Source of the DNA: Minisyncoccota bacterium
GTDB lineage: Bacteria; Patescibacteriota; Minisyncoccia; UBA6257; 2-01-FULL-56-20
Direction: 5' to 3'
NCBI GenBank assembly: GCA_035509435.1
Contig: DATJLR010000002.1
Location: forward strand, 133,774-197,773
Length of the DNA stretch: 64,000 bases
A program made the position numbers and the translations under genes. This document shows, in pieces, positions 28,618 to 56,865 of the stretch. Below the pieces are notes generated by a model that saw only the letters and a program-made list of their open reading frames with translations, was not told the origin of the DNA and ran no database searches. Position 1 is the stretch's first letter. Every line of letters begins with the position of its first letter.

Positions 28618-28619
28618 AT

Positions 28620-29173: not shown

Positions 29174-29263
29174 CACCGGTGCGGATCACACGAATATGTT
29201 GCGCGATTGCCGTTTTTTCGCTATATTTTCTTGGAGCAGCGCGCCGCCGGCGCGCGTGACGGC

Positions 29264-29336
29264 GCCACCTTAGCTCAGTTGGTAGAGCAGTGCTTTCGTA
29301 AAGCAAAGGTCCCCGGTTCGAATCCGGGAGGTGGCT
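29264..29336 (+). tRNA. tRNA-Thr (anticodon CGT)
   Basis: Acceptor GCCACCT/AGGTGGC, discriminator U, anticodon loop TTCGTAA, T loop TTCGAAT. Confidence 0.8.
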
Positions 29337-29362
29337 CAAAAGTGATATAATAAGAACAATCT

Positions 29363-36257: not shown

Positions 36258-36306
36258 GGCATTTGCTATACTTTAAGTGGAGGATCATACCTCCTCAGAT
36301 CTTCCA

Positions 36307-38432: not shown

Positions 38433-38450
38433 TCATACCAACCACGCGCC

Positions 38451-39995
38451 ATGAGCATATCCATAGATCCAAAGAAAGGGGTGCGGCTGAAGACGGTGCG
38501 CAGGCACAGCTTTGGAGTAGCGGCCGTGATCATCGCGCTTGAAGCGGTATTTTCGCTGCTCCTCTATATGTCCCTTGCCGAACGCGTTTTCGTGGTGAAT
38601 CCGGTTTCTGCAACGGCTGGCGTTCCCGAGCTTGTGTCATACCAGGGAATGCTGACCGACACGTCGGGGAATCCCCTGGGAGGCGCGGGTTCCGTGTATT
38701 GTTTCCGCTACTCCATCTGGGATGCTGCGACGAGCGGGAACCAGCTGTGGCCGAGCGGCACGCCGGGCAATTCAACGACGACCGTGATCGACGGCGTGTT
38801 CAGCGACGAGATCGGCCGCGTGGACAGTCTTTCGCCGCTCGACTTTGAATCCACCTCCACGTATTACTTGCAGGTGCAGGTGAGCACGTCGTCTCTTACC
38901 TGCGCGACGGGGCTCGAGACGCTCTCGCCGCGCCAGCAGATCACGAGCGACGCCTGGTCGCAGACCGCGCAGGGCGTGTACGGGTCGCAGCTCCGCACGT
39001 TCAGCTCGAACAACACCGTGCAGATCGGCACCGGCGGCGGCGTGGCGTCCGGCAGCCAGACGCTCCTTTCGCTCGACGTCGTGAACACCGGCGAGTCGAT
39101 CGGCGGCTCGTGCACCACGAACGGCACGCTCTGGTACGATTCGAACCTCAAGCGCGCGCTCGTCTGCGAACAGAACCTCATCGTCCCGATCTCCGAAAGC
39201 GAGACGCTCATAGGGAACGGCATTACGGGCACGAGTACCATCGTAAATCCGGTATGGGCCGCGGATTCGAACATCACTTTCAGCACGAACGGCAACACGA
39301 TCAGCATCGAAGGTGCCGGCGGTGCAGGCGGCACGTTGCCGACGTTTCTTACCTATAACAACCGGCAGCTTGGAGCGTCGTCCGCGTTTGCGATCGTCAA
39401 CAATAGTGTGTGGGTAACGCCATTCAGGGTAAACGGGGGAAATGTTTCCGCAAGCACGCTCCTCATGATGGAATCATTTGCCACGAACGCCTCTTTGACG
39501 AGCAGCAATACCTCGACGTGGGGACAGACGCTCCGGTGGGGAATGTATTCGAATCCTGACAGCAATTCGACGGAAATGGACCTCTATGCTACGGGAAGTG
39601 TCCTGTTGCAGATATCGCATAGCAGTAACACTTCTTATATCGTCAACTATAATGGAGCGACGACAGGAAGCGCAAACTCCGGCCTTATCAACTCGTATGT
39701 GAGCGGAGTGAGGATGGTGACATTCCCATATGGATCGTCAATAACTCCGGGTCTTTATGCATTCGGTTATGTTGTCAGTACGGCAGGTTCCGCAATCATG
39801 GGAAGTGCGGCGCCGGTATTCGATAATCCCCTCAACGCTACTGTAGGGTATCTGCCGGGTGTTGCGACGGCATCCGCCGGTTATGGGGATGCGGGCACCA
39901 TCGGCACGTCCACTTCCATGCCCGCAACATTCGCGCTTACGAATGTGGGTCAGGTGAGCAACCGCGTGCCATATGTTAAGATGGGAGACCTGTAA
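38451..39995 (+). CDS. membrane-anchored Ser/Thr/Asn/Gly-rich surface protein
   Basis: N-terminal TM (FGVAAVIIALEAVFSLLLY), 514 aa of low-complexity beta-rich sequence. Confidence 0.5.
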   Translation: MSISIDPKKGVRLKTVRRHSFGVAAVIIALEAVFSLLLYMSLAERVFVVNPVSATAGVPELVSYQGMLTDTSGNPLGGAGSVYCFRYSIWDAATSGNQLWPSGTPGNSTTTVIDGVFSDEIGRVDSLSPLDFESTSTYYLQVQVSTSSLTCATGLETLSPRQQITSDAWSQTAQGVYGSQLRTFSSNNTVQIGTGGGVASGSQTLLSLDVVNTGESIGGSCTTNGTLWYDSNLKRALVCEQNLIVPISESETLIGNGITGTSTIVNPVWAADSNITFSTNGNTISIEGAGGAGGTLPTFLTYNNRQLGASSAFAIVNNSVWVTPFRVNGGNVSASTLLMMESFATNASLTSSNTSTWGQTLRWGMYSNPDSNSTEMDLYATGSVLLQISHSSNTSYIVNYNGATTGSANSGLINSYVSGVRMVTFPYGSSITPGLYAFGYVVSTAGSAIMGSAAPVFDNPLNATVGYLPGVATASAGYGDAGTIGTSTSMPATFALTNVGQVSNRVPYVKMGDL

Positions 39996-39998
39996 CCA

Positions 39999-40733
39999 AT
40001 GGACAGGCCAACGCCCCAAATAGTCATACCAAGTTACGAAGGCTCCAACAATGCGAACCTCGACGCGTCCGTCGCGCGCCTCGAAACTTCAAAGTCGTAT
40101 CGCGACCTTTCTACGGTCATCATCTGCCCCACGCGCGGCGCGGTCGCCGCGAAAGTGGTGCAGAGCTGGATGAGCCTCATGAAACCGATGAACCAAAAAG
40201 TGCTCGGGCCGCTCTTCGCGATCGGTATGGAAGTAGGGGAGGCATACGACGAGATGATAAACGTCATCCTTGCGAACCCCGTGCTCTCCACATGGAAATA
40301 TATTCTGACGATCGAGGAGGACAATATGCCTCCACCGGACGGCTTGCTCAAGTTGTACGAGGACATGGACGAGTACGACGTCGTCGGCGGCTTGTATTGG
40401 ACAAAAGGCGAAGGCGGCCAGCCGATGATCTACGGCGACCCGAACGGCGAGCCGAACAATTTCATTCCTCAAGTTCCGGTGAAGGATGGCCTGCAGCGGG
40501 CGAACGGCCTTGGGATGGGATTCAATCTTTTCAAAATGGAGATATTCAAGGACGAGCGGATTCCCCGGCCATGGTTCAAGACGTTGCAGGAATTCGACTC
40601 CCAAAAAGGCGGCGCGGCGGCCACGCAAGACCTCTATTTCTATCGGAATGCCGGTCCGCTCGGCTATAAATTCGCCTGTGACACGCGCGTGAAGGTCGGC
40701 CACTATGATGCAGCGATGGATATTGTGTGGTAG
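39999..40733 (+). CDS. putative glycosyltransferase (GT-A-like)
   Basis: VIICPTRG start, acidic EEDN motif, C-terminal YFYRNAG..CDTRVKVGH; assignment tentative. Confidence 0.35.
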   Translation: MDRPTPQIVIPSYEGSNNANLDASVARLETSKSYRDLSTVIICPTRGAVAAKVVQSWMSLMKPMNQKVLGPLFAIGMEVGEAYDEMINVILANPVLSTWKYILTIEEDNMPPPDGLLKLYEDMDEYDVVGGLYWTKGEGGQPMIYGDPNGEPNNFIPQVPVKDGLQRANGLGMGFNLFKMEIFKDERIPRPWFKTLQEFDSQKGGAAATQDLYFYRNAGPLGYKFACDTRVKVGHYDAAMDIVW

Positions 40734-40763
40734 GGCGATATAAAGGATATAATAGATGAAACT

Positions 40764-41273
40764 ATGAAGCTCGACATCGCATGCGGCCAGCGCAAACAAA
40801 AAGGGTTCAAGGGCGTGGACATCGTTCCGGGGCCGGACGTCGATTTCGTGTGGGATTTGGAAAAATATCCGTGGGAGCCGTTCAAGGACCATTCCGTGAA
40901 CGAGGTGTACATCGCGCACTATGCGGAACACACGAATGACCTTATAAAATTCATGGATGAGGTGTGGCGCATCTGCGAGAACGATGCGAAGGTGACGATC
41001 GTGGCGCCCTACTACACGTCGCTTACGGCGTGGGCGGACCCGACGCACAAGCGCGTGCTCACGGAGATGACGTGGGCGTATTTCAGCAAAGGGTGGCGGG
41101 AACGGGAGAAGCTGGACCATTACCCGACGAAGTGCGACTTTGCCGTCGGCAATCCGGTCGTGTTCTTCAATTCGCCGTGGGACAAAAAGTCCGAGGAGGC
41201 GCGGCAATTCGCCCAGCGGCACTATTGGAATGTCATTTCGGAAATGGTCGTCGAGCTGAAGGCGATCAAATGA
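40764..41273 (+). CDS. class I SAM-dependent methyltransferase
   Basis: Motif I LDIACGQRKQKGFKGVD and small MTase fold length. Confidence 0.6.
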   Translation: MKLDIACGQRKQKGFKGVDIVPGPDVDFVWDLEKYPWEPFKDHSVNEVYIAHYAEHTNDLIKFMDEVWRICENDAKVTIVAPYYTSLTAWADPTHKRVLTEMTWAYFSKGWREREKLDHYPTKCDFAVGNPVVFFNSPWDKKSEEARQFAQRHYWNVISEMVVELKAIK

Positions 41274-41286
41274 TGGCGGCGCGACG

Positions 41287-41814
41287 ATGAAGCTTCCGAA
41301 GGAATTCCGCAAACGGGAATATCGCGTGCTCGCGCTCGCCATAGCATTTTTTGCGCTTGGATCGTTCTTTTTCTTCGCGGATCGGTCGTATGTGCCGCAA
41401 GAAAAAACAGCGGCGGGAACCGCTGCTGAAGTCGTTGCCCCTTCCGCAGATGGCGCCCCCATAAGCCCCGCCGAGGGATCCGCATCGCTCAATCCTCAGT
41501 TCTCGGATTACCCGGCTCCCTCCCGATTCCGCACGTTCGCGTTCGCCAACGGAAAGATCGATGACGGCGTGTCGCTTACGGTGACCTCCACCTGCGCCGA
41601 TGCGTACGTGGCGGTGCTTGTATTTCCCGCCTCGGTGGATTACCGGGCGGATATCGATCGCGAGATTTATGACAGCGCCTTTCCGTGCGTTACCACCGGC
41701 GATGTCGCGAGCACGACCATCATTGCGGGCGACCTTGGGAACGCCCCTTCCGGCACATATTATTATTTTACCGCCGATCAGGGGGCGAGCGGCGTATGGT
41801 ATAATCCAAAATAA
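41287..41814 (+). CDS. hypothetical membrane-anchored protein
   Basis: N-terminal TM; 2 Cys pairs. Confidence 0.45.
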   Translation: MKLPKEFRKREYRVLALAIAFFALGSFFFFADRSYVPQEKTAAGTAAEVVAPSADGAPISPAEGSASLNPQFSDYPAPSRFRTFAFANGKIDDGVSLTVTSTCADAYVAVLVFPASVDYRADIDREIYDSAFPCVTTGDVASTTIIAGDLGNAPSGTYYYFTADQGASGVWYNPK

Positions 41815-41816
41815 GC

Positions 41817-42245
41817 ATGGCAATACATGAAGAGGGCGGCTCACGGTGGGGGATCGTTCTCGCGGTCGTCGTCGCGTTGATCGTGGCCGTTCTCATTTTT
41901 TTTGAATTTGATGACGCCTTATCGTGGATGGCGTTCAATGATCCGTTCCAGACGAACTGGGCCGCTGTTCAGCTTGTGGATGGCGAAATGCTGTATGGCC
42001 ATCTCGCGGGCGTATCAGGATCCGTGCTCGGCCTTAAGGATGTGTATCTTCTTGATAAAGTAACGGAGCAGGAAGCCCCACAGGCTTCTTCCACCGACTT
42101 TACTCTGGGCGGAACACCGACGCCGCAAGCGGGACAGGCGCTTGTTCCCGTGAGCTATACCGGCCAGCTGTTCATCGAACGCTCGGCGGTGCTCTACTTC
42201 AAGTTCGTCGCCCCCGGCGATCCCGCGCTCCAATACCTGCGATAG
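41817..42245 (+). CDS. hypothetical membrane-anchored protein
   Basis: N-terminal TM; abuts the previous gene. Confidence 0.45.
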   Translation: MAIHEEGGSRWGIVLAVVVALIVAVLIFFEFDDALSWMAFNDPFQTNWAAVQLVDGEMLYGHLAGVSGSVLGLKDVYLLDKVTEQEAPQASSTDFTLGGTPTPQAGQALVPVSYTGQLFIERSAVLYFKFVAPGDPALQYLR

Positions 42246-42269: not shown

Positions 42270-44315
42270 ATGAGATCCCGCGTGACGTGTCGCTCCGCCT
42301 TTGGGTGGGGCATTATCGTGGTCGCCACTCTTGTCGGGTCCATTTTATTCGTTCCAAGGGCCTCGGCAGCCGTAACATTCGTCCAGGCGGCAACATCTAC
42401 CGGGAACGCGAATGCGGTATCCAGCACTTTCTCTTCCGCTGTGACGGCGGGAGATACGCTCGTCGTGTTCGCGCAGTGGGGCGATAATACATCGACCCCT
42501 CCCGCGATCTCAAGCATCACCGATACGCGGGGGAATCATTTTGTCGTCGTGACGAGCACGAAGGCCATGCAGATCAGCCCTCCGGATTATTTAACGAGGG
42601 ATATCGCAGAAGAGCTGGCATACGCGACGGGAACTACCGGTGGCGCGGATACCGTGACGATCACCTATGCCGATCCCTCGACAGGCATCGGTTATATGTC
42701 TGTTATTGAAATTACGGCGAGCGTCCTTGACCTCACCTCCGAAGCGACAGGCACCTCGGCAGCGCCGTCCGCGGGAACCGTCACCACCCTGCAGAACGGC
42801 GAGTTCGGCGCGGCGAACTTTTTTCAGGATGACGGCGTCGGTAATCCAAGCAGCATCGGGCCGGGCACGGGATGGACGATGTTTCAGCAGACCGGCGGGG
42901 GGGCGGCGGATGAAGGAGGCGAGTACTGGGCGCAATCCACAGCGGGCGCCCTTACGGGCAATTTTACTTCATCAAATTCGGCACGATGGGCGGCGGGCAT
43001 GGCGGTGTTCGTGCCGCCGGGTTTGTCATCGGCGCCCTGCGATACGTTGCTCACGGATTTCTGCTCAACGGATTTTTTCGTCCGGGGACAGGTGGGAAGC
43101 GTGTTGGGGAATTCCAATTCCACCGATTTCAGTGTGCGATATAGCGCGCAGGTGCTGGCGCTGCCGTTGATGACGTCGGCTGATTTCGAGATAACCTCGG
43201 GCGTCCTTGTGCCGGTATTCAAAGCGGTAAAGCCCGCCTATACTGTTGCCCACTACCAATGGCGTAACGACAACGGCAGCGAGACCGGCGCGACGTCGGC
43301 TACCGGCGGCATTGAGGATTCCGCGCTTACGGGGCTTCAGCAGAGTACCAGCATCCGGCTGCGCATGGAGGTCACGAACTCCGGTGGCACGATCTTTTCC
43401 TATTCGCCGCAATCGTTGCAGCTGCAATATGGCACATTGAGCACGACATGCTCTGCCATATCGTCATGGACGGTGGTGGGCGCCGCTGGCTCAGTGTGGA
43501 GCATGTACAACTCCACGAACCTCACGAATGGCGCGAACACCACGAACATCGCCACTTCGACCGGTGGCGTCGCGGACGCGAACCATACTTTCATCGTTGC
43601 CAACGCCGGAGTGAGGACCACGACAAGCACGGTGGGCGCGATAGCGATCCCGAGCGATTCGTTCATCGAGACCGAATTTGACATTGAAGCGCTCACCAGC
43701 TCGACGCCGAACGGCACCTATTGTTTCCGCCTCACGAATGCCGGCTCTGCGACCAATTTCGTATATTCAAATTATCCGCAGGCTACCGTCGCCTCGGCGC
43801 AATCGATCACGCTTACCCTCAATACTTCCACCGTCACGCTTTCCGGCCTTGCTCCTGGAATCGCGGTGAGCGCGACGACGACGGCAACAGTGAATGTGAG
43901 CGGGGCCACTGACGGATATACCCTTGAGATACAGCGCAACTCTGCGACGTCCACTCTTGCATCGTCCAGCATCACATTCCCGGATTTCGTTTCGTGGAAA
44001 CCCACCAGCACTGTCTGCGCCCCGGGAATAGGAAATGCGGCCACCGCTACCGGCAATACGTTTTCGTTCCGCGTCGCTTCGTCGGGGACCACGGCGAGCT
44101 ATTGCACATTCTGGTGGGGTTCGAACGATTCGGCCGGCACGGCGATGTATGCCGGCATTCCGAGCACCACGCAACCTATCGTGTATTCCACATCGTCCGC
44201 CTCGCAGAACGGTACGACAACGATCTCCATCATCTATAGCGCCAATGCGCCATTAAGCCAGAAGGCGACAGGCTACACGGGAGGGGTTACGATCACCGCA
44301 CTCGCAAACCCGTGA
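42270..44315 (+). CDS. large secreted surface protein with C-terminal WxL-like domain
   Basis: Signal peptide, S/T/A-rich body; the last about 170 aa share a domain with the next gene (QRNSATST..ITFPD ... ANAP..Q.AT.YTG..TITA.A.P). Confidence 0.5.
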   Translation: MRSRVTCRSAFGWGIIVVATLVGSILFVPRASAAVTFVQAATSTGNANAVSSTFSSAVTAGDTLVVFAQWGDNTSTPPAISSITDTRGNHFVVVTSTKAMQISPPDYLTRDIAEELAYATGTTGGADTVTITYADPSTGIGYMSVIEITASVLDLTSEATGTSAAPSAGTVTTLQNGEFGAANFFQDDGVGNPSSIGPGTGWTMFQQTGGGAADEGGEYWAQSTAGALTGNFTSSNSARWAAGMAVFVPPGLSSAPCDTLLTDFCSTDFFVRGQVGSVLGNSNSTDFSVRYSAQVLALPLMTSADFEITSGVLVPVFKAVKPAYTVAHYQWRNDNGSETGATSATGGIEDSALTGLQQSTSIRLRMEVTNSGGTIFSYSPQSLQLQYGTLSTTCSAISSWTVVGAAGSVWSMYNSTNLTNGANTTNIATSTGGVADANHTFIVANAGVRTTTSTVGAIAIPSDSFIETEFDIEALTSSTPNGTYCFRLTNAGSATNFVYSNYPQATVASAQSITLTLNTSTVTLSGLAPGIAVSATTTATVNVSGATDGYTLEIQRNSATSTLASSSITFPDFVSWKPTSTVCAPGIGNAATATGNTFSFRVASSGTTASYCTFWWGSNDSAGTAMYAGIPSTTQPIVYSTSSASQNGTTTISIIYSANAPLSQKATGYTGGVTITALANP

Positions 44316-44390: not shown

Positions 44391-45056
44391 ATGAAACATT
44401 TTTTGAGTGGAGCGTTCGGTAGAGCAGCCTCGCTTTTGATTGTATCAACCGTTATCGTTTTGGTTATGGGATTCGGAGTGGAAAACGGCGGTGGTATCCG
44501 ACAAGCTCAGGCTTCCACCTCGACATCGACCACGCAGACCATCAATGTGACAGTCAACCAGGTCATCACGCTTTCGCTTTCTGGAGCAAACCTTAACCTT
44601 CCAACGCTCACGCCGGGAACCGCTGTCATCGCGACATCAAGCGCCACGGTCACCACAAATGCCGTTTCGGGCTGGCAGCTCCAGGTCAATAGGAACAGCG
44701 CCACTTCCACGATAGCGTCGGGAACCATAACATTCCCCGACCAGACGGCGTTCACCGGCAATAACGCGACCTCGGCGGCCAATCTGGCAAACAGCGGCGC
44801 AAATCTTAGCTTCCGCGAATATCAAACCGGCACATCCGCAGGCGATTACAGTTCCGCAACGTGGGGCACTGCCGATACTGACCCGAGCGCATTTTATGCC
44901 GGCTTCCCGACATCAGCGGTAACGTATGCAAGCACGAGCACCTACACGGGTACCGCTCAGACGGTTGTCATGGAGGTTCGGGCGAACGCTCCAGCGACCC
45001 AACAGGCGACAACTTATACCGGAGCGATCACTATTACCGCCGTTGCGCTGCCATAA
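44391..45056 (+). CDS. secreted WxL-like domain protein
   Basis: 221 aa; SGWQLQVNRNSATSTIASGTITFPD ... TYTGAITITAVALP; resembles WxL cell-surface domains (tentative). Confidence 0.45.
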   Translation: MKHFLSGAFGRAASLLIVSTVIVLVMGFGVENGGGIRQAQASTSTSTTQTINVTVNQVITLSLSGANLNLPTLTPGTAVIATSSATVTTNAVSGWQLQVNRNSATSTIASGTITFPDQTAFTGNNATSAANLANSGANLSFREYQTGTSAGDYSSATWGTADTDPSAFYAGFPTSAVTYASTSTYTGTAQTVVMEVRANAPATQQATTYTGAITITAVALP

Positions 45057-46005: not shown

Positions 46006-47223
46006 GTGAGAAGACCTTTTCTGTATGTAATAGTGTTCGCGATCGCGGCGTCGGCACTTATCGCGAACGCCCAAAGCACGGGAAGCCCCCTGCAACTCAA
46101 TGTTACTGTCGTATATCCGCCGGGTATCCCATCTGGTCTTACGGCAACGACGACCTCGGCTTCTCAGATAGACCTTTCGTGGAACGCGAGCGGGACGAAC
46201 GAGACCGGATTTGAAATAGAAGAAGCGCAAGGGAATGATTCAGTATTTACTCCGATAGACGTGGTCAGTTCAAGCGTCACATCATATTCCCGGACGGGTC
46301 TCTTGCCGAGCACGACCTATTTTTATCGTGTTGCGGCGTATAACGAGGGAGGGTCGAGCGCATTTTCTAATGAGGCGTCGTCAACGACGCAGGCGGCATT
46401 GAACAATGGCGGCGGAATAAACAGCGGTGGCGGCGGCGGCGGAGGCGGCGGTGGTGGCGGTGGTGGTGGCGGATCGACATATGTGCCGCCGATATTTCAA
46501 ACCTCTGCTGATTTTCGCGGCATGGCGTATCCGCTGAGTACCATCACGCTCCTCGAGAACGGCCAGGTAGTTGCGACGACACAAGCGGGGCCGGATGCCC
46601 GTTTTGAGATCGACGTTTCGAACATGGCTCCGGGATCGTATAATTTCGGCGTATGGGCGGAGGATCCGCAGGGAGGCCGGTCGATCACGCAGACATTTTC
46701 TGTAAGCCTTACCGATGGCGCGACGACCATCGTGAGCGGCATATTCTTCTCGCCCACCATCAGCGCGGACAAGCGGCAGGTCAAGCGCGGCGACGTACTG
46801 ACCCTTCTTGGATATGGCCCTCCGGCGACGACGATCACCGTGGTCATCAATTCCGCGAATGAGATATTGCAGCAGGTCACTTCGACCGACAGTGGAGAGT
46901 GGACCTATGCGTTGAATACTGAAGAGTTGGAGTATGGCGATCACACGGCTCACGCGTGGGCCGTGGCGGGCGGAAGCGTGACGCCGGATTCGGACACCCT
47001 CTCGTTCACGGTCGGGACAAGTACGGTCGCCGCACCGGCGTTGTCGCCGTCAACTCATAAAATAGGAGATCTGAACGGCGACGAACGCGTCAACCTTGTT
47101 GATTTTTCCATTCTCGCCTATTGGTACGGCAAACCGAATCCTCCGGCGGCGTATCTTTTGGACGGAAAGCCGTCGGTCGACCTCGCGGACTTCAGCATCC
47201 TAGCTTATTATTGGACCGGCTGA
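46006..47223 (+). CDS. secreted FN3-domain protein with poly-Gly linker and C-terminal dockerin-like repeats
   Basis: FN3 segment (PSGLTATT..QIDLSWNASG..YFYRVAAYNEGG), G16 linker, two dockerin-type repeats GDLNGDERVNLVDFSILAYWYG / LDGKPSVDLADFSILAYYWTG. Confidence 0.6.
   Translation: MRRPFLYVIVFAIAASALIANAQSTGSPLQLNVTVVYPPGIPSGLTATTTSASQIDLSWNASGTNETGFEIEEAQGNDSVFTPIDVVSSSVTSYSRTGLLPSTTYFYRVAAYNEGGSSAFSNEASSTTQAALNNGGGINSGGGGGGGGGGGGGGGGSTYVPPIFQTSADFRGMAYPLSTITLLENGQVVATTQAGPDARFEIDVSNMAPGSYNFGVWAEDPQGGRSITQTFSVSLTDGATTIVSGIFFSPTISADKRQVKRGDVLTLLGYGPPATTITVVINSANEILQQVTSTDSGEWTYALNTEELEYGDHTAHAWAVAGGSVTPDSDTLSFTVGTSTVAAPALSPSTHKIGDLNGDERVNLVDFSILAYWYGKPNPPAAYLLDGKPSVDLADFSILAYYWTG
46426..46473 (+). 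repeat. (GGN)16 trinucleotide tract encoding Gly16
   Basis: ggtggcggcggcggcggaggcggcggtggtggcggtggtggtggcgga. Confidence 0.9.
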
Positions 47224-47224
47224 C

Positions 47225-48112
47225 ATGAAAAAAATACTTCCCATATTTTTCACTGTCGCCGCGCTGATCGTTCCGTGGCGCTCCTTTGCCGCCGTCATTA
47301 CCGTCGGGCCCTCGGGAGCCGATCCGCAAACGGTCGCGATCACGCTCGATACGCAAGGCGAGGAGGTGAACGCGGTGGAAATTCACTTTTCATTTGATAC
47401 AGACCTATTTTCCGTGAAGGGCATAAGTACCGGCGGTTCGGTCATCAACCTGTGGGTGAACGGCCCGTCGTTCTCGAACACGTTGGGTACGGTAGATCTC
47501 GCGGGCATCATTCCGGGTGGCGAGGTGACCGCGAGCGGCACCATTGTGACGATCACCCTGGTGCCAAAATTGCCGCAGGTACGGACCAATTTTACTTTCG
47601 ATTCAGGCCAAGTGCTTTTGAACGACGGGAAAGGGACCCCCGCAGCGCTTTCCGTTGTCATCAATCCGTTCACGCTGGGCGGCGCGGGCAGCGCTCCGCC
47701 GGCAGAGAGCACAAAGGCGCCGAACGCGTTCGCGCCCGAGATCGGGCAGGATCCGGACATTTTCGGCGGCAGCTATTTCCTTGTATTTTCGACGACCGAT
47801 CAGCAATCGGGCATCGACCATTACGACGTCCTGGAGGTTCCCGCAGGAACGAAAGTGACGAGCTCTTCGCCGTGGGTGACCGCTGCCTCTCCGTATCTTT
47901 TGAAGGATCAGGAACTTTCGAGCGATATCTACGTGCGCGCGGTCGACGCGGCGGGGAACTTCCGGACCGAAAAAATTTCAGCCGCACATCCGCGTCCGGG
48001 GATATCCGCTACCCTCTCTATCCTTGAAGCGATCCTCGGGGCGATAGTGGTATTATTGATAGGAGCGGGGATCGTGCGGCGTATCCGTCAATGGAAAAAA
48101 CGAAAGCGATAA
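47225..48112 (+). CDS. cohesin-domain protein with C-terminal TM anchor
   Basis: Signal peptide; cohesin-like beta-sandwich (HFSFDTDLFSVKGISTGGSVINLW..GTVDLAGI..ASGTIVTITLVPK); C-terminal TM plus RRIRQWKKRKR. Confidence 0.55.
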   Translation: MKKILPIFFTVAALIVPWRSFAAVITVGPSGADPQTVAITLDTQGEEVNAVEIHFSFDTDLFSVKGISTGGSVINLWVNGPSFSNTLGTVDLAGIIPGGEVTASGTIVTITLVPKLPQVRTNFTFDSGQVLLNDGKGTPAALSVVINPFTLGGAGSAPPAESTKAPNAFAPEIGQDPDIFGGSYFLVFSTTDQQSGIDHYDVLEVPAGTKVTSSSPWVTAASPYLLKDQELSSDIYVRAVDAAGNFRTEKISAAHPRPGISATLSILEAILGAIVVLLIGAGIVRRIRQWKKRKR

Positions 48113-49548
48113 GGAGGCTCTCGCTGATCTTCGGCACGGCCACCATGCTTGCCGTGGTTTTCGGCGCACATGCCGCGCGCGCGGCGACGCTTTCTTTCTC
48201 GCCGCAGGCGGGAACCTATTTTTCCGGAAGAAGCTTCAGTGTTTCGGTCATTGTTTCTTCGCCCGACCAGGCGATGAACGCCGTGCAGGCGGAGGTCTCT
48301 TTCCCTCCCGACGAACTCCAGGTGCTTTCCGTGTCTGAGGCGGGCTCGATCATCGATCTTTGGGTGCAGAACCCGACGTTTTCAAACGAAGATGGCACGA
48401 TAAATTTCGGAGGAGTGGCGGTAAATCCTGGCTATCAGGGATCCGGGGGGAAAATCGTGACGATCCAGTTCGAGGCAAAGAACCCCGGCACGGCAGCGCT
48501 TTCATTCCTTTCGGGATCTGTTCTTGCGAATGACGGAAAGGGGACCAATATTCTTGCGTCAATGGGCCGCGCGAGCTTCATCGTTGCGCCCCTTTCGACC
48601 GCTCCTGCATCGACGAATCCCGGGACTGCCGGAAGCACGGGGCCGGGCGTTGTCATCATCAATTCCGATCCTGCGCTTGCGAGCGGCCAATGGTATAACA
48701 TTAATAAGATCACATTCAGCTGGAGCGCCCCTACGAACGCCGAAGGCGTTGACTACGCGATATCCCCGAATCCGAACCTTCAACTTCCCGATGTGGGCCA
48801 AGGGTTGGTTTCTCAAGCGTCCTATGACCTTTCTAACTTTGCGGATGGCCCGTGGTATTTTTATGTGAGCTTCAATAACGGGAGCGCGTGGTCGCCCCCT
48901 TCCGTAAAGGAATTTCTTCTTGACCGCACCCCGCCCGATCCGTTCATTATTTCGCGCGAAGGCGCGGATCAGCCGGATTCCCGGCCGGTATTTCAATGGG
49001 TCGCGAGTGACGCTGCTTCGGGGATCGATCATTACGAGGTGAAGATCGGCGATGGCGACTGGTTCGATGCGTCCACCATACAAGCGGGAAGTTCCACATA
49101 TGTGCTTCCGCTGCAGTCGCCCGCTTCCGCGCGGACGCTCACGGTGCGCGCGTTCGACAAGGCGGGCAACCATACCGACGCGACGGTCGATTTTTCGGTG
49201 CCCGGTGTGCCCTGCAATGGTGGCGCGTTCTTCTGCCGGCTTCCGGTGTTCTTTTCTCAATGGGGATGGGTGATCGTCGGTATCCTTGTTATTCTGCTCA
49301 TTCTTGCCTACGGCTTTATTTACCATCTTCTTCGGTGGAAAAAGATCTCGGCGAAAGAGTTGAAAAAATTCGAAGACGAGCTCCGCCACGATCTCGGTGT
49401 CATCCATGAAGAAGCCGAAAAAGCGCGGTCCGGTGCCGTTGATCTGAGGCCATCCCATCTTGCACGCGAAAAGCGTGAGCTTGAGAAAGAGGTCGAGCAT
49501 ATTTCCGAGGATGTGAAGAAGGAAATCAGGGATCTGGGCGGGAAATAG
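48091..49548 (+). CDS. cohesin-domain protein with TM anchor and cytoplasmic coiled-coil tail
   Basis: Second cohesin-like module (VSFPPDELQVLSVSEAGSIIDLWVQNP..GGKIVTIQFEAKNPG), shared SGIDHYEV domain, TM, charged coiled-coil C-terminus. Confidence 0.55.
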   Translation: MEKTKAIRRLSLIFGTATMLAVVFGAHAARAATLSFSPQAGTYFSGRSFSVSVIVSSPDQAMNAVQAEVSFPPDELQVLSVSEAGSIIDLWVQNPTFSNEDGTINFGGVAVNPGYQGSGGKIVTIQFEAKNPGTAALSFLSGSVLANDGKGTNILASMGRASFIVAPLSTAPASTNPGTAGSTGPGVVIINSDPALASGQWYNINKITFSWSAPTNAEGVDYAISPNPNLQLPDVGQGLVSQASYDLSNFADGPWYFYVSFNNGSAWSPPSVKEFLLDRTPPDPFIISREGADQPDSRPVFQWVASDAASGIDHYEVKIGDGDWFDASTIQAGSSTYVLPLQSPASARTLTVRAFDKAGNHTDATVDFSVPGVPCNGGAFFCRLPVFFSQWGWVIVGILVILLILAYGFIYHLLRWKKISAKELKKFEDELRHDLGVIHEEAEKARSGAVDLRPSHLAREKRELEKEVEHISEDVKKEIRDLGGK

Positions 49549-49592
49549 TGTCATCGTTGGAAGCGTGACTCTGCCGCCTTTTTCTGCTATAA

Positions 49593-50348
49593 TTGCCCAG
49601 TATGCTGAACATTTCGCTCGCCGCTGAACCCATCTTTTATATCGGCTCATGGCCGGTGACGAACGCCGTGCTTCAGGCGTTCGTGGTGCTGGTGGCGCTC
49701 ACCATCATCGCCGTTCTCCTTAAAAAGAAGCTTGCGATGGTGCCCGGTATGTTGCAGAACATCGCCGAGATGGTCATTGAGGGCGCGCTCGGACTCATGG
49801 ACTCTGTGCTTGGGAGCCGGAAGGAATCGGAAAAATATCTGCCGCTCACCTTCACTATCTTTATCTTTATCCTGATCTCCAACTGGTCGGGACTGATCCC
49901 CGGGGTCGGATCGGTGACGCTCGGCCGCGGCGCGGACGCGATCCCGCTTTTGCGCTCGCCCGCGAGCGACCTCAACTTCACGCTTGCCCTCGCGCTCATC
50001 GCCGTCACCATGGTGAACGTCTTCGCGACATCCATCGTGGGATTGCGCGAGCGCGTGTCGGTATTCTTCAATTTCTCGAGCCCGATCAAGTTTTTCGTGG
50101 GCATACTTGAGCTTATCTCGGAATTTGCTAGAATTATCTCGTTCACGTTCCGTCTTTTCGGCAATGTGTTCGCGGGGGAGGTCCTGCTCGCCATCATGGC
50201 GCTCCTCGTGCCATACCTGGTGCCCCTGCCATTCATGTTCCTGGAAGTGTTCGTCGGATTCATTCAGGCGTTCATTTTCGGAATGCTCACACTCGTATTC
50301 GTGGCGCTCGCGATCACTCCTCACGAAGGCGAGGAGGCGGGCCATTGA
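49593..50348 (+). CDS. atpB: F0F1 ATP synthase subunit a
   Basis: 5-TM; RLFGNVFAGEVL motif with the essential Arg. Confidence 0.9.
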   Translation: MPSMLNISLAAEPIFYIGSWPVTNAVLQAFVVLVALTIIAVLLKKKLAMVPGMLQNIAEMVIEGALGLMDSVLGSRKESEKYLPLTFTIFIFILISNWSGLIPGVGSVTLGRGADAIPLLRSPASDLNFTLALALIAVTMVNVFATSIVGLRERVSVFFNFSSPIKFFVGILELISEFARIISFTFRLFGNVFAGEVLLAIMALLVPYLVPLPFMFLEVFVGFIQAFIFGMLTLVFVALAITPHEGEEAGH

Positions 50349-50393
50349 CGCCGCGAAGGGAAAGGTCGTACCAAGAAGAACAGAGAAAAATAA

Positions 50394-50645
<252 letters not shown>

Positions 50646-50652
50646 CGTCACC

Positions 50653-51171
50653 ATGCAGCAACTCGTACAACAGCTCGGCGTCAATTGGGAGCTCCTGCTC
50701 AGTCAGGCGTTCAATTTTGCGCTGCTGCTTGTCGTGCTGCGCATTTTCGTCTACAAGCCGCTCTTGAAGCTGCTGCATGACCGGCGCGAGCGCATCGAGG
50801 GCGGCCTGGCGAAAGCCGAAGAGGCCGAGCGCCGGCTCCACGAGGTTGATGAGATCGGAAAGGGAAGGATCAAAGAGGCGGAGACGGAAGCGGTGCATAT
50901 TTTAAAACGCACCGAAGCCGAGGCGAAGTCGCTCGAAGAAAAGCTGCTTGCCCAGGCAAAACGCCACGAGGAAGAGGCGGTGGCAGCCACCGCCACGCGA
51001 TTGCGGTCGCAGGAAGAGGAATCGCGCCGGGCGCTCGATAAAGAGGCGGCGGCGCTTGTGCGTCTCGCCATGGTGAAGACGGTCGAGCTCTCGCCGGAAG
51101 CGGTCGACGATGCGTTGATCGCAAAAGCGGTCGCCGAAGCCAAGAAGTCGGTAAGCGCATCAACCGCATGA
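50653..51171 (+). CDS. atpF: F0F1 ATP synthase subunit b
   Basis: N-terminal TM then a long charged helix. Confidence 0.8.
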   Translation: MQQLVQQLGVNWELLLSQAFNFALLLVVLRIFVYKPLLKLLHDRRERIEGGLAKAEEAERRLHEVDEIGKGRIKEAETEAVHILKRTEAEAKSLEEKLLAQAKRHEEEAVAATATRLRSQEEESRRALDKEAAALVRLAMVKTVELSPEAVDDALIAKAVAEAKKSVSASTA

Positions 51172-51560
51172 AATACCCTCCGCACATTTACGCGAAGGCG
51201 CTCGTAGAGGTCCTGTCCGCGCCTGCCGGGCCGCACAAGCGGTCCGACGACGAGGTGGCAAAGAATTTTCTCGCGCTCGTGCGGAAGAACGGCGACGAAC
51301 GGCACTTGCGGAAGATATTGGAAGAGGCGTCGCGGTTCGCGCGCGGCAAGAGCGGCGTGCGGAAGGTGACGATCGAGTCGGCGCGTCCGCTCGCGCCGGC
51401 ACAGCGAAGATCGGTTGCGCACTTCACCAAGCCGGGGGATGTCGTGGAGGAGCGGGTCGACCCCGACCTCATCGCGGGGATCCGCATCATCCTGAACGAC
51501 GAGATGCAGTTCGACGGATCGCTGAAAACCAAACTGAACCGGGCGTTGGGGAACGCGTAA
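51168..51560 (+). CDS. atpH: F0F1 ATP synthase subunit delta (short OSCP)
   Basis: Position between b and alpha; YAKALVEV..; only 130 aa. Confidence 0.65.
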   Translation: MKYPPHIYAKALVEVLSAPAGPHKRSDDEVAKNFLALVRKNGDERHLRKILEEASRFARGKSGVRKVTIESARPLAPAQRRSVAHFTKPGDVVEERVDPDLIAGIRIILNDEMQFDGSLKTKLNRALGNA

Positions 51561-51575
51561 CGCGAAGAAACTATC

Positions 51576-53102
51576 ATGTCATACGAAATCATCGAAAAAC
51601 TGAAGCGGGATATCGAGGGATATAAAGAGAAGCCCGAATGGGCCGAAATGGGCCGCGTCATCGAGGTCGGCGACGGCATCGTCCGCATCCTTGGGTTGCG
51701 CAACGCCGTCAGCCAGGAGGTTTTAATAATTGAAACGGCGCACGGCGAACGTCCCGCGCTTGCGCTCAACCTTGAGGAGGAGTCCATCGGCGGCCTCGTG
51801 CTCGGCGATTTCCTCGCGATCGAAGTGGGCGACACCGTGCGCCGCACCGGCGATGTCCTGTCCATAGAAGTGGGGGATGAGCTGATCGGCCGCGTCGTGG
51901 ATCCATTGGGAGTCCCGCAAGATGGGCAAGGGCCGATCTTTAAAACGGGTTCCAAGCCCCAGCGCAATCCGCTCGAACAGCGCGCGCCGGGTATCCTTGA
52001 CCGCGAGTCGGTCAATACGCCGGTGCACACCGGCATCAAGGCCATCGACGCGCTGATCCCGATCGGCCGCGGCCAGCGCGAGCTCATCATCGGGGACCGC
52101 GCGACCGGGAAGACCGCCGTCGCGCTCGATACCATTTTGAACCAGAAGAACGATACCGGCCGCCGCACGCCGATCTGCATCTACGTTGCGATCGGACAGA
52201 AGGAATCCAAGGTGGTGCGCATCGCCGAGACGCTCAAAAAGTTCGACGCGTTCAAATACAGCATCATTGTTTCCGCGTCGGCGGGATCGCCGGCGGCCAT
52301 GTGGTACCTTGCGCCGTACGCCGGCGCCGCGATCGGCGAATATTTCCGCGACAAGGGCATGGACGCGCTCATCGTCTACGATGATCTTTCCAAGCATGCC
52401 TGGGCATACCGCCAGATCTCGCTCCTGCTCCGCCGCCCGCCGGGCCGCGAGGCATATCCCGGCGACGTCTTCTATCTCCACTCGCGCCTGTTGGAGCGCG
52501 CAGCGAAGCTTTCAAAAGAAAAGGGCGGCGGATCGCTTACCGCGCTCCCGATCGTCGAAACACAGCTCGGCGACGTGACGGCATACATCCCGACGAACAT
52601 CATCTCCATCACGGACGGCCAGATCTATCTTGAGACGGACCTTTTCAACCAGGGCCAGCGCCCGGCGTTGAACGTGGGCATCTCGGTGTCGCGCGTGGGT
52701 TCCGCAGCGCAGACGAAGGCCATGAAGAAAGTTGCGGGCAAGCTCAAGCTCGCGCACGCGCAGTTCCGCGAGCTCCAGGCATTCGCGCAGTTCGCAACCG
52801 ACGTCGACGAAGCGACGCGCAAGCGCATCCTGCAGGGACAGAAGATCAACGAGATCCTCAAGCAGGACGACCTCGACCCGATGCCGGTGGAAGAGCAGGT
52901 GTGCGTGTTCTACGCCGTGCTCAACAACTACTTTGAGTCCGTTCCGGTGGAGGACATCAAAAAGAAGCAGGACGAGCTCGTGGATTATCTTTCCACGCTC
53001 CACGAAGAGGATATCCTGAAACCGATCCGCGATACGGGATTGTTTGACGAAGCGGTGGAGAACAAATTAAAAGAGGCGCTCACGCACTTTCTTTCTAAGT
53101 AA
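51576..53102 (+). CDS. atpA: F0F1 ATP synthase subunit alpha
   Basis: GDRATGKT Walker A, alpha-specific motifs. Confidence 0.9.
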
Positions 53103-53133
53103 CCGCTAACAAGTAACAAGGTCTACTATTATT

Positions 53134-54069
53134 ATGGAGTCCGGACAGAGCTTAAAGCGGCGCATGAAGAGCGTCCAGAATATCGGACAGATCACGAAGG
53201 CGATGGAGCTTGTCTCTGCCACCAAGATGCGGCGCTCGCAGGAGCTTGCGCTCCATTCGCGCCCGTACGCGTACACTGCGTTGCGGTTGCTTGGCATCCT
53301 GTCGTCGCTCAAGGACGTTCCGACGCCGGTGCTCTTTGAAAAGCGCGAGGTGCAACGCACCGCGTTTCTCTTAATGATGTCCGATCGCGGCCTTGCGGGT
53401 TCCTTCAACGGCGCCGTCGTCCGCGAGTTCGAGCGATACATGAAAGCGAACAAGATCGATATCCTGGATCCGCGCTACTCTTTTATTGCCATTGGGCAGA
53501 AGGCCAAAAGTTACTTTGAGCGACGCCGCGCGCGCGTCATCGCTTCGTTCACGCGCGTGAGCGATGCGAGCAGCATTCTCGACGCCGAGCCGATAGCGGA
53601 TTTTTTGATCGAGGGCTACGCGCGCCATGACTTTGACGGTGTCATCGCGTTCTTCACGACGTTCGTCACTGCGCTCCGCCAGGATCCGGTCGTCCGCGAG
53701 CTCCTTCCGGTGAGCTTCGAGGCGATCAGGCAGTCGGTGGAAGAGACGATCCCGCGCGCCGGCCGCTACGCGGACTACGCAAAGTCGGAAGCCTTCATGG
53801 ACGGGCGCGAGAAAGAATACATTATCGAGCCGTCGCCAAAAGAGGTGCTGGACGAGCTCGCGCCGAAACTTCTGAAGATCCGCCTGTATCACGCCATCCT
53901 CGAAGCCAATGCCTCCGAGCACTCGGCGCGTCGCGTGGCGATGAAGAACGCATCCGACAACGCGTCGGAACTTTCGGAAACGCTCACGATGGTCTATAAT
54001 AAGTCGCGTCAGGCCGCCATCACGGCGCAGATCATCGAGATCACGAGCGGGGCAGAGTCGCTGCAGTAG
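53134..54069 (+). CDS. atpG: F0F1 ATP synthase subunit gamma
   Basis: MESGQSLKRRMKSVQNIGQITKAMELVSATKMRR N-terminus, conserved C-terminal helix. Confidence 0.85.
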   Translation: MESGQSLKRRMKSVQNIGQITKAMELVSATKMRRSQELALHSRPYAYTALRLLGILSSLKDVPTPVLFEKREVQRTAFLLMMSDRGLAGSFNGAVVREFERYMKANKIDILDPRYSFIAIGQKAKSYFERRRARVIASFTRVSDASSILDAEPIADFLIEGYARHDFDGVIAFFTTFVTALRQDPVVRELLPVSFEAIRQSVEETIPRAGRYADYAKSEAFMDGREKEYIIEPSPKEVLDELAPKLLKIRLYHAILEANASEHSARRVAMKNASDNASELSETLTMVYNKSRQAAITAQIIEITSGAESLQ

Positions 54070-54197
54070 CAAAATCATTTTGGATTATCTTTTCGGGGAC
54101 GGGTCGCGTTCTGCTGAACGCGCCCTAACGCTCGGCACCCCCGTGCCTCCGCGATTCCCCTCAAAGACAACCCAAAGTGATTTTGCTACTGCAGCGA
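54058..54197. repeat. 20-bp perfect inverted repeat (TCGCTGCAGTAGCAAAATCA) flanking a 100-bp spacer, overlapping the atpG stop codon
   Basis: Arms at 54058-54077 and 54178-54197; the spacer contains a nested GCGTTC..GAACGC hairpin. Confidence 0.75.
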
Positions 54198-54267
54198 TAT
54201 GCGTTGGAAGTGGTGTAAAACATTAAATTTTGATGAAAAATTATTTGCAATGCTATAATCAAGCTCT

Positions 54268-54585
54268 ATGATTGGGGTCATGGAAGATAAAAAAATATTT
54301 GAACAGTTAGCGTACAAGATCGCCAGGGAAGTGGCTGCGGAAAAAGATCGGCGCCACGGGGTTATTCTGGAGGATATCCAGGGAAAATTTGCCGCTTTGG
54401 TTGAGGGTCAGAATGCAATGGAGAAGAGAATGGACGGATTTGATGGGAGATTAGGAAAGATTGAAGTAAAAATGGAGAAAATGGATGATACCCTTGATGA
54501 GATCAGAGAGGATATACGGGATAAAGCCGATAAAAAAGATGTGGCCACGCTGGAGCGGCGGGTTACCAAGCTTGAACACCTCTAA
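54268..54585 (+). CDS. small coiled-coil protein inserted between atpG and atpD (paralog of 33244..33633)
   Basis: 105 aa; same N- and C-terminal signatures as the paralog; TATAAT at 54253-54258. Confidence 0.5.
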   Translation: MIGVMEDKKIFEQLAYKIAREVAAEKDRRHGVILEDIQGKFAALVEGQNAMEKRMDGFDGRLGKIEVKMEKMDDTLDEIREDIRDKADKKDVATLERRVTKLEHL

Positions 54586-56320
<1,735 letters not shown>

Positions 56321-56340
56321 GCCGCGCGCCGATCGTTATC

Positions 56341-56781
56341 ATGGAACCGTTCGTGAAGTTCAATTCAGAACATGGGCACTACACTGCCGACGCGTGCGTC
56401 GTGTGGTGCTTCGATGACCGTTTTTATAAATTGCTGAAGGCGTTCGGCAAGCAGGAAGGCTTTGGCCACATTGATCTCGTGAAGGTGGCGGGCGGCGCGA
56501 AGGCGCTCGCGTCCGAGGAGGCCGCATCGCCGGAGCGCGATTTTCTGCTCGCCCAGATCAAGACGTCCGCGCGCCTGCATGGCACGAAGCGGGTGGTCCT
56601 CATGCTCCATCGGGACTGCGGCGGATACGGCGGCTCAAAAAGTTTTGAAAGCGCCGATGCGGAGCGCGAGGAACTTATGAAACAATTGCATCAGGCGCAG
56701 GATTTCGTAAAGAAAGAGACCGGCCTTACCGCAGATGCCTGTTTTGCGGATTTTGACGGATTATATATGCACACACTATAG
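56341..56781 (+). CDS. beta-carbonic-anhydrase-like small protein
   Basis: CFDDR (CxDxR) and HRDCGG (HxxCGG) motifs; 146 aa; ends FADFDGLYM. Confidence 0.4.
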   Translation: MEPFVKFNSEHGHYTADACVVWCFDDRFYKLLKAFGKQEGFGHIDLVKVAGGAKALASEEAASPERDFLLAQIKTSARLHGTKRVVLMLHRDCGGYGGSKSFESADAEREELMKQLHQAQDFVKKETGLTADACFADFDGLYMHTL

Positions 56782-56865
56782 TGTTACCTCGCATATTCGA
56801 CAGATCTTGAGTTGTGGAGTATACTTTCCTCCAGCAACTTATTTCGATCAGCGGTAGGAGCATAG

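Follow-up and report, generated by a model that had tools for sequence, protein, structure and literature searches.

The 64,000-nucleotide stretch of contig DATJLR010000002.1 from a Minisyncoccota bacterium (hereafter the window) contains, between positions 46006 and 49548, three consecutive genes on the plus strand that combine a dockerin with two membrane-anchored cohesins. The first encodes P1, a secreted multi-domain rod protein with a terminal dockerin, and the second and third encode P2 and P3, single-pass membrane proteins in which the outermost module has a cohesin fold. The order of a dockerin gene, a gene for a short cohesin membrane protein and a gene for a long one is conserved over hundreds of species of the Candidate Phyla Radiation (CPR), and the trio usually lies right behind genes for a WxLIP-like membrane protein and for remote relatives of the Pam pilins. 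The features of the three genes are listed below, with AlphaFold2 (AF2) confidence given as the predicted local distance difference test (pLDDT).

46006-47223, plus strand: P1, secreted dockerin-bearing rod protein; open reading frame (ORF) of 405 residues, AF2 pLDDT 89.1
46006-46071, plus strand: inferred signal peptide of P1, residues 1-22; hydrophobic N-terminus, AF2 helix at residues 4-20
46090-46116, plus strand: free N-terminal β-strand of P1, LQLNVTVVY, residues 29-37; candidate donor strand
46129-46386, plus strand: FN3 domain of P1, residues 42-127; Pfam fn3 E 8e-12 over residues 42-125
46426-46473, plus strand: Gly16 linker of P1, residues 141-156; exactly 16 glycines counted, pLDDT below 50 at residues 142-158
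46504-47016, plus strand: two tandem Ig/FnIII-like domains of P1, residues 167-247 and 256-337
47062-47220, plus strand: dockerin of P1, residues 353-405 (53 residues); two repeats at the extreme C-terminus
47225-48112, plus strand: P2, short cohesin membrane anchor of 295 residues; AF2 pLDDT 92.8
47291-47677, plus strand: cohesin of P2, residues 23-151, behind a signal peptide at residues 1-22
47738-47977, plus strand: OmpL47/Ig-like domain of P2, residues 172-251
48002-48076, plus strand: transmembrane helix of P2, residues 260-284, followed by a basic tail of 11 residues
48091-49548, plus strand: P3, long cohesin membrane anchor of 485 residues
48184-48579, plus strand: cohesin of P3, residues 32-163, behind a signal peptide at residues 1-31
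48982-49200, plus strand: OmpL47/Big_13-like domain of P3, residues 298-370, preceded by an FN3-like middle domain at about residues 185-290
49261-49320, plus strand: transmembrane helix of P3, residues 391-410
49321-49545, plus strand: cytoplasmic helical tail of P3, residues 411-485

All three ORFs were present on the plus strand at the coordinates of an initial annotation of this DNA, and P2 and P3 were identical to the NCBI proteins VMA75_01715 and VMA75_01720, encoded on a contig of 439 kb. The gene overlaps of 8-22 bp that had been described there were not reproduced: the only overlap within the trio is one of 22 nucleotides at the P2/P3 junction, and the P1 stop codon is separated from the P2 ATG by 1 nucleotide. 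P1 initiates at a GTG codon. Public gene calls (Logan/JGI) place its start at 46522, giving a protein of 233 residues in which the first 172 are lost; the 516 omitted nucleotides (46006-46521) encode the signal peptide, the N-terminal strand, the FN3 domain and the Gly16 linker. The gene callers may fail here on the GC-rich (GGN)16 run, and comparison with orthologues indicates that the long GTG-initiated ORF is the correct form, so that the shortened P1 in public annotations is flagged here as a systematic gene-calling error. When the window was searched in six frames with hidden Markov models (HMMs), the dockerin model gave a single match, to P1 (4e-32), and the model of the P2 cohesin family matched only P2 (1e-46) and P3 (2.7e-34). 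The window therefore holds one dockerin and two cohesins, and matches with such E-values lie well beyond what chance would give.

The domain order first proposed for P1, an FN3 domain and a run of 16 glycines ahead of two C-terminal dockerin-type repeats, agreed with the fn3 match and the glycine count given above. A phmmer search of the Protein Data Bank (PDB) matched the FN3 domain to those of titin and contactin, and AF2 placed β-strands over residues 43-127. The tandem Ig-like pair gave matches to Pfam Big_6 (1e-6) and Big_13 (2e-5) and was likewise built of strands in the AF2 model. With the complete P1 model, Foldseek retrieved generic tandem-FnIII proteins only, with neither RbmA nor dockerins singled out. 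In approximately 107 full-length relatives of P1 the constant elements were the signal peptide, an alternating β-strand, a poly-Gly stretch, the two Ig domains and the dockerin; runs of at least 5 glycines were found in 97 of the 107 and of at least 7 in 86. The module between the strand and the poly-Gly varied, being an FN3 domain, a Cys-rich domain or absent. It was absent in 16 of 94 relatives, in which the strand is the sole element ahead of a Pro/Gly linker. That the FN3 domain is dispensable in relatives while the rest is constant speaks against a main role for P1 as a displayed adhesin.

The C-terminal half of P1 had more than 1089 relatives, most of those listed carrying a precomputed match to Pfam PF00404 (Dockerin_1), and one relative bears the NCBI name 'dockerin type I repeat-containing protein'. 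PF00404 was matched at E≤0.01 by 36 of 39 P1 relatives, with a best value of 1.9e-16. A profile constructed from 39 C-termini was compared with the PDB and matched solved dockerins at E-values between 1e-6 and 1e-3, headed by 2y3n_B (1.3e-6, covering both repeats) and 5nrm_B (4.5e-6) and including 4fl4_A, 1daq_A and 2mte_A, while EF-hand proteins appeared at E>0.28 only. A reading of the repeats as generic EF-hands was rejected on this difference and on the PF00404 matches of the family, leaving the original dockerin assignment in place.

The AF2 model of P1 contains two helices in this region, at residues 364-372 and 393-401, with pLDDT values of 92-96. Their sequences are DFSILAYWY and DFSILAYYW; the pattern DFSI[LM]AY[YW]W is extremely conserved in the family, where the C-termini of relatives typically read DLNGDGRVNLVDFSILAYWY, then approximately 10 residues, then DLNGDGKVDLVDFSIMAYYWTG as the end of the protein. 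The first calcium-binding loop of P1, residues 355-366 (DLNGDERVNLVD), is intact and together with the helix FSILAYWY gives a complete first repeat. The second, residues 384-395 (nucleotides 47155-47190, LLDGKPSVDLAD), is degenerate: the norm for dockerin loops, as used here, expects D/N at position 1, D at position 5 and G at position 6, where P1 has L, K and P. Positions 3, 9 and 12 are retained, and the helix FSILAYYW follows. Most relatives of P1 have DLNGDGKVDLVD at the second loop, both loops then being intact. Of the two calcium-binding repeats initially ascribed to P1, the first thus stands as described and the second is degenerate at positions 1, 5 and 6. The degenerate second loop, of the form xLDGxxxxDLxD, was also observed throughout the closest clade of P1 relatives (P0003, P0004, P0006, P0011, P0012, P0014, P0018 and others), in which the flanking helix is intact. 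To judge from these loop sequences, the clade may represent a lineage that has switched to a dockerin with a single calcium ion or a single binding mode.

P2 and P3 each have a hydrophobic signal-like N-terminus and a single C-terminal transmembrane segment. BLASTP comparison identified them as paralogues, with 31% identity between their N-terminal modules (E 6e-18) and 30% between their second shared modules (SGIDHY...RA.D.AGN; E 1e-5). This agrees with the signal peptide, shared second domain and C-terminal anchor reported for both proteins initially. When an AF2 model of P2, built from 114 sequences, was compared with the PDB using Foldseek, the top 35 matches were all cohesins, with E-values down to 7e-8, which confirmed the proposed cohesin modules. 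The best match was 2w1n, a cohesin with an FN3 domain from Clostridium perfringens GH84C, and single-module cohesin chains gave template modelling scores (TM-scores), normalised to the target, of approximately 0.65-0.73. Superposition of 2vn5_A on the P2 model gave E 1.6e-7, a TM-score of 0.71 and a root-mean-square deviation of 3.3 Å over 147 columns. The model is a nine-strand cohesin β-sandwich that superposes on solved cohesins. Cohesins were missed when PDB sequences were searched with P2 and P3, whether as single sequences or as profiles, and emerged from the fold comparison alone. The N-terminal module of P3 probably adopts the same fold, given its paralogy with P2.

At the family level, PF00963 (Cohesin) was matched at E≤0.01 by 19 of 114 P2 relatives (best 6e-7), and P3 had more than 1030 relatives, many with PF00963 and several named 'cohesin domain-containing protein' by NCBI. 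Positions conserved in both paralogue families were NA, S....W...P, F.G....G..G and NDG.G. The domains with the SGIDHY motif, second in P2 and third in P3, correspond to an Ig-like barrel of the OmpL47 or Big_13 type: NF047446 was matched by 39 of 114 P2 relatives, and P3 scored 3.6e-5 against NF047446 and 0.011 against Big_13. The tail of P3 beyond the transmembrane helix, initially described as cytoplasmic, was confirmed as a charged helical segment of 75 residues, rich in K, E, L and R and conserved in sequence (YHLLRWKK.S.KELKKFEDELRRDLK...VDLRPSHL...EKR.LEKE..HI.EDVK). Some relatives of P3 are labelled 'TatA' by JGI, and weak NCBIfam matches to ATP synthase subunit b, TatA and PspB were observed. 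These matches reflect a common layout of a transmembrane helix followed by an amphipathic charged helix and not homology.

Relatives of P1 were found in at least 569 species-level CPR genomes in a scan of one genome per species, including members of the Jorgensen-, Wolfe-, Kaiser-, Lipton-, Nomura-, Sung-, Magasanik- and Torokbacteria and other lineages. In the first five contigs inspected, the trio was orthologous and adjacent in all five. A survey of 84 loci was then carried out using local HMMs for the dockerin gene (DOC) and the short and long cohesin genes (COH1 and COH2), with gene order counted over the loci with room. DOC was followed by COH1 at 72 of 79 loci and by COH1 and COH2 together at 67 of 70. 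A C-terminal transmembrane segment was present in 72 of 79 COH1 proteins, with a median tail of 5 residues, and in 70 of 71 COH2 proteins, with a median tail of 77 residues. The flanks of the cassette varied from genome to genome. The WxLIP-like gene was located directly upstream of DOC at 46 of 72 loci.

A second cassette architecture was observed at 21 loci (L004, L012, L020, L023, L025, L029, L032, L034, L037, L042, L059, L061, L065, L069, L071, L074, L077, L078, L080, L081 and L083). These loci have no WxLIP-like gene, and the DOC protein begins with a module of approximately 58 residues (SxSFxL..GG..S.SF.L.SS.GQ...GFL). At four loci that carry a WxLIP-like gene (L016, L051, L062 and L064) the same module was found on another upstream protein.

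The trio had originally been described as a minimal surface-display scaffold. This description did not hold, as the three genes form the 3' part of a larger operon that includes pilin-like and WxLIP-like genes upstream:

42270-44315, plus strand: W_681, large secreted protein; the last 171 residues (43800-44312) form a pilin-like domain
44391-45056, plus strand: W_221, small pilin-like protein with a signal peptide, the N-terminal extension QTINVTVNQ and a domain of approximately 165 residues
45085-45993, plus strand: W_302, WxLIP-like protein with two β-domains and a C-terminal transmembrane segment; Pfam WxLIP_PGBD

The three upstream genes are separated by tiny gaps on the same strand as the trio, W_302 stopping 12 nucleotides before P1. 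The Pam pilus of Ca. Mycosynbacter amalyticus (Saccharimonadia) consists of the donor-strand-exchange pilins PamA/B/E/T, the membrane-anchored chaperones PamC/D and the RbmA-like PamR, a proposed terminator and anchor in which a strand at the N-terminus is combined with two FnIII domains and a transmembrane helix (10.64898/2026.03.03.709456). The pam operon adjoins the ATP-synthase operon, and the system was reported mainly in Saccharimonadia and Microgenomatia (10.64898/2026.03.03.709456). Residues 57-221 of W_221 and 511-681 of W_681 were 41% identical by BLASTP (E 7e-25), and W_681 matched the pilin C-domain (PILC) HMM of the locus survey; a Pfam/NCBIfam domain scan of W_681 was empty. An exhaustive HMMER search gave 131 representative relatives of W_221, in which the domain occurs either alone (approximately 200 residues) or at the C-terminus of proteins of 400-1876 residues. 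Of 61 small relatives, 24 matched the NCBIfam model NF058581 (CPR_Pam_pilin_C) at E≤0.01 (best 1e-8) and 11 matched NF058579 (PamT; best 2e-14), and the match of W_221 itself to NF058581 spans profile positions 3-146 of 148. A remote relationship of W_221 to the CPR Pam pilins is therefore supported at the level of the family. A profile search of the PDB with the pilin-like family gave no significant match. By eye, W_221 shows some resemblance to WxL proteins (GWQLQV and a C-terminal Y..x..T.TA...P); Pfam WxL was not found in W_221, W_681 or the 61 relatives at E≤0.01.

W_302 scored 34.9 bits against Pfam WxLIP_PGBD (DUF916), above the cut-off of 27.3 bits (E 1.7e-8). A profile of its family, made from 36 sequences, matched the solved Enterococcus faecium EfmWxLIP1 (9i25_C, 9i1y_A) with an E-value of 1.1e-5 over profile positions 50-274, covering both domains. 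W_302 is a candidate membrane-anchored chaperone or stabiliser for the pilin-like proteins. On the other side of the trio, 45 nucleotides after P3, begin the genes of an F-type ATP synthase (atpB, E, F, H, A and others; operon at approximately 49593-57000), and this adjacency recurs at loci L007 and L009 and at the more remote locus L022. A promoter and terminator scan gave no more sites than shuffled sequences and found no clear terminator in the interval between P3 and atpB; a good -35/-10 match was located at 49565-49593.

The N-terminal strand of P1 is positioned outside the fn3 match, which begins at residue 42, and appears as coil with pLDDT values of 58-75 in the AF2 monomer. Nearly every P1 relative has an equivalent xVxVxV strand behind the signal peptide, and a lone strand on a flexible tether is unable to fold by itself. 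The strand resembles the N-terminal extension of the pilin-like protein in the window (LQLNVTVVY in P1, QTINVTVNQ in W_221), and similar pairs of dockerin protein and pilin-like protein occur at L052 (SVVTVSATV and DQVSVSATV) and L066 (TTLTVTVVY and AVTLTVTVAQ). At the 21 loci of the second architecture the module of approximately 58 residues that begins the DOC protein also heads several proteins of the pilin family (phmmer 1e-5 to 1e-7). The PamT model was matched by 3 of 87 P1 relatives (best 2e-7). An in-house HMM of the pilin C-domain matched no P1 relative, and the PamT matches therefore probably reflect a shared N-terminal module. Together these sequence likenesses suggest that P1 joins a filament through an N-terminal element of the pilin type, and, lacking the pilin C-domain, P1 would terminate that filament.

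The trio is considered, with moderate confidence, to be a non-cellulosomal cohesin-dockerin anchoring module that forms the 3' part of a Pam/WxL-type surface-filament operon. Its conservation as the end of a pilus-like operon indicates that it is most likely a plug-and-socket surface anchor and not a cellulose-degrading machine. Following export by the Sec pathway, the dockerin of P1 is predicted to plug into the cohesin of P2, of P3 or of both, which would hold P1 by a non-covalent link at the cytoplasmic membrane of a cell lacking an outer one. The N-terminal strand of P1, held on the poly-Gly tether, would enter the final pilin-like subunit, either W_221 or W_681, through donor-strand complementation, with W_302 predicted to act as a membrane-anchored strand-donating chaperone. 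P1 would then be situated at the base of the filament, and P1 with P2/P3 would constitute a 'split PamR', divided at the cohesin-dockerin joint, that both ends the filament and anchors it to the membrane. The cytoplasmic helix of P3, of approximately 75 residues, may couple this anchor to the cell interior.

Several observations weigh against this interpretation. The window proteins themselves fall below the Pfam gathering cut-offs: against PF00404 (cut-off 22.9 bits), full-length P1 scored 14.5 bits and its 62-residue C-terminus 18.9 bits, and against PF00963, P2 scored 15.9 bits (cut-off 24.1 bits) and P3 gave no match. The HMM scans suggested initially as a check thus recovered the fn3 domain directly and the dockerin and cohesin domains in the families only, and the domain calls in P1-P3 rest on family-level and fold evidence because of these scores. 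The P1 dockerin may bind differently or more weakly than others, as its second loop misses two ligand positions. For the filament, W_221 scored 12.5 bits against NF058581 (E 0.11), where the cut-off is 55 bits, and NCBIfam searches with the P2, P3 and W_302 families did not find a Pam-specific model. Pilin-like genes were detected upstream of the trio at 17 of 61 loci, a low count that is likely to be limited by the sensitivity of the HMM, and adjacency to the ATP synthase operon was seen at 4 of 84 loci only. The similarity between strands of dockerin proteins and pilins is modest: the mean score was 21.25 within a genome and 19.37 between genomes, with a permutation p of approximately 0.01 (n=20) that ignores shared ancestry. 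The N-termini of secreted β-sandwich proteins often bear short alternating β-strands. Neither cohesin nor dockerin is mentioned in the Pam preprint (10.64898/2026.03.03.709456).

An alternative, put forward initially, in which the trio is a stand-alone system for adhesin display is rather unlikely. In such a system P1 would be cargo displayed by P2 and P3, with its distal FN3 or other module binding the host or a substrate, and the pilin-like genes would lie nearby by chance or for reasons of regulation alone. This explanation is equally served by the domain assignments (cohesin and dockerin) and by the synteny of the trio; the N-terminal module of P1 differs between lineages (FN3 or Cys-rich) as the tips of adhesins often do, and the varied flanks and the 21 loci without a WxLIP-like gene are also consistent with it. 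In the saccharibacterium Southlakia a dockerin-domain protein is essential, and a role in targeting host glycans has been suggested for it (PMC10633639). However, approximately 1 in 6 relatives of P1 has no folded module before the poly-Gly, just a strand of approximately 10 residues, and adhesin display is weakened because these relatives have nothing to display. The conserved N-terminal elements are moreover those found in the pilin-like proteins, and in the window the trio shares the strand of the WxLIP-like gene with gaps of at most 12 nucleotides, the two being adjacent at the majority of loci (46 of 72).

Less probable still is that the proteins contain cohesin-like and dockerin-like folds with no binding between them; P2 and P3 would then be structural proteins of the envelope or of an S-layer type and the end of P1 a calcium-stabilised module for peptidoglycan, glycan or a host protein. 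Some proteins with cohesin-like folds do not bind dockerins, and the Pfam scores of the window proteins and the degenerate second calcium loop of P1 would fit this explanation. Against it, the DOC-COH-COH order is near-invariant in very divergent CPR lineages (67 of 70 loci), the dockerin helices are extremely conserved and are matched by conserved positions in both cohesin families, and the window contains exactly one dockerin and two cohesins; the near-invariant gene order and the conservation of the helices in particular make folds without mutual binding unlikely.

A genuine cellulosome-like scaffold for polysaccharide degradation is extremely improbable, for apart from the domain names it is favoured only by weak matches of a few P1 relatives to NCBIfam cellobiosidase/exoglucanase models, presumably through the dockerin end, and it was excluded within the window and the 84 surveyed loci, where no glycoside hydrolase, carbohydrate-binding module (CBM) or multi-cohesin scaffoldin was found, each cohesin protein carries one cohesin, the window holds one dockerin, and the host is a CPR bacterium with a reduced genome. 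Neither the six proteins of the operon nor the seven ORFs upstream of it contained a glycoside hydrolase or CBM domain, and the initial description of the trio as lacking an attached hydrolase is right in this respect, which makes it a case of non-cellulosomal surface anchoring.

When compared with known systems, the anchoring module inferred for the trio combines features of three that have been described separately, namely the cellulosomal cohesin-dockerin pair, the CPR Pam pilus and the WxL/WxLIP clusters of the Firmicutes. The nine-strand fold of P2 is that of the clostridial type I cohesins (2vn5 from C. cellulolyticum; 1ohz and 2ccl from C. thermocellum; OlpA/OlpC, 3ul4 and 4dh2), and P1 has the two repeats of approximately 22 residues of type I dockerins, each with a 12-residue D-x-N-x-D-G...D loop followed by a helix. 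The near-identity of the two helices is also a feature of dockerins with a dual binding mode. In contrast to clostridial cellulosomes, the system described here has no enzymes, CBM or multi-cohesin scaffoldin, its host belongs to the CPR, and P2 and P3 are anchored by their own C-terminal transmembrane helices and not by SLH domains or sortase. Identity to the solved cohesins is 9-22%, and the second calcium loop of P1 departs from the type I pattern.

Cohesin and dockerin modules have been widely noted outside cellulosomes, and a 2009 survey by Peer et al. reportedly described them there. This much is already known, and automated annotation labels some of the CPR relatives accordingly. Solved non-cellulosomal examples are Archaeoglobus fulgidus 2xdh and C. 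perfringens GH84C 2w1n and GH33 2vo8. Organisms that are not cellulolytic are known to have single cohesins and dockerins, and the cohesin and FnIII-like domains of 2w1n have the two-domain arrangement of P2. Unlike these, the CPR modules occur as a fixed three-gene cassette within a pilin/WxLIP operon and are spread over the species-level genomes counted above.

With the Pam pilus, which is specific to the CPR, the window shares pilin-like proteins with a C-terminal domain of approximately 150-170 residues, an accessory protein with two β-domains and a C-terminal transmembrane segment (W_302) and an ATP-synthase operon as neighbour. P1 and PamR are both rich in FnIII domains and both have an additional N-terminal strand. 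They differ in that the anchoring role of PamR is predicted here to be split over a dockerin protein and two transmembrane cohesin proteins; the score of W_221 against the Pam pilin model is a further difference. W_302 is a homologue of the WxLIP proteins encoded in the WxL/WxLIP (Csc) clusters of Lactobacillales and Bacillales (PMC10599100, PMC1534035), and for WxLIP in Firmicutes a strand that fills a gap in WxL domains has been predicted (PMC10599100). The logic of these clusters, in which the domain makes up the whole of a small protein and the C-terminal end of a large one, accompanied by a membrane-anchored protein with two Ig domains and a predicted strand-donating role, is shared by the operon in the window; the clusters differ in that Pfam WxL was absent from the 61 pilin-like relatives, and cohesin or dockerin genes form no part of their description in PMC10599100 or PMC1534035. 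The match of W_302 to EfmWxLIP1 at E 1e-5 and the mirrored gene layout suggest an evolutionary relationship between the CPR Pam pilus and the WxL/Csc clusters, a link stated neither in the Pam preprint nor in the WxL paper.

A wider generalisation is put forward tentatively, as plausible rather than probable: that across the CPR, in Paceibacteria and related classes, a predicted cohesin-dockerin plug has been recruited as the anchor of a donor-strand-exchange filament. The dockerin protein would serve as terminator and adaptor, donating either a strand of the pilin type or the 58-residue pilin N-module, and would dock reversibly on two membrane-anchored cohesins in a process that requires no sortase, usher or outer membrane. 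The conserved cytoplasmic helix of one of the cohesin proteins could signal or regulate attachment. CPR bacteria, or Patescibacteria, need contact with host cells, and the surface appendages that are central to this contact are largely unannotated. If correct, the generalisation would give the first demonstrated case of a cohesin-dockerin pair acting in pilus biogenesis, would explain the purpose of the widespread dockerin and cohesin genes of the CPR, and would add filament anchoring to enzyme scaffolding as a use of the cohesin-dockerin interaction. It would also offer a concrete and testable explanation for the attachment of Pam-type filaments to cells that have neither an outer membrane nor sortase. 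A literature search for dockerins and cohesins in the CPR did not find the cassette, or its link to a Pam/WxL-type operon, described.

Seven ORFs upstream of the operon, within 36277-42245, gave uninformative domain scans. One of them, a 514-residue ORFan at 38451-39995, is 40% identical (E 1e-27) over its N-terminal 160 or so residues to the N-terminus of a 1362-residue protein of locus L004, which is encoded immediately upstream of the dockerin cassette there; the surface-protein locus of the window may for this reason reach further upstream. Two other ORFans, at 36277-37803 and 41287-41814, have a common C-terminal motif (C..Y.A.L.F...; SGTYY[YL]...G.W), from which they may be paralogous secreted proteins. 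Elsewhere in the window, an additional tRNA-Ser(tga) was called at 10794-10867, its 74 nucleotides being short for a class II tRNA, and a cluster of tRNA genes (Ser-tga, Ala-ggc, Arg-cct, Ser-cga and Thr-cgt) is located at 27699-29337.

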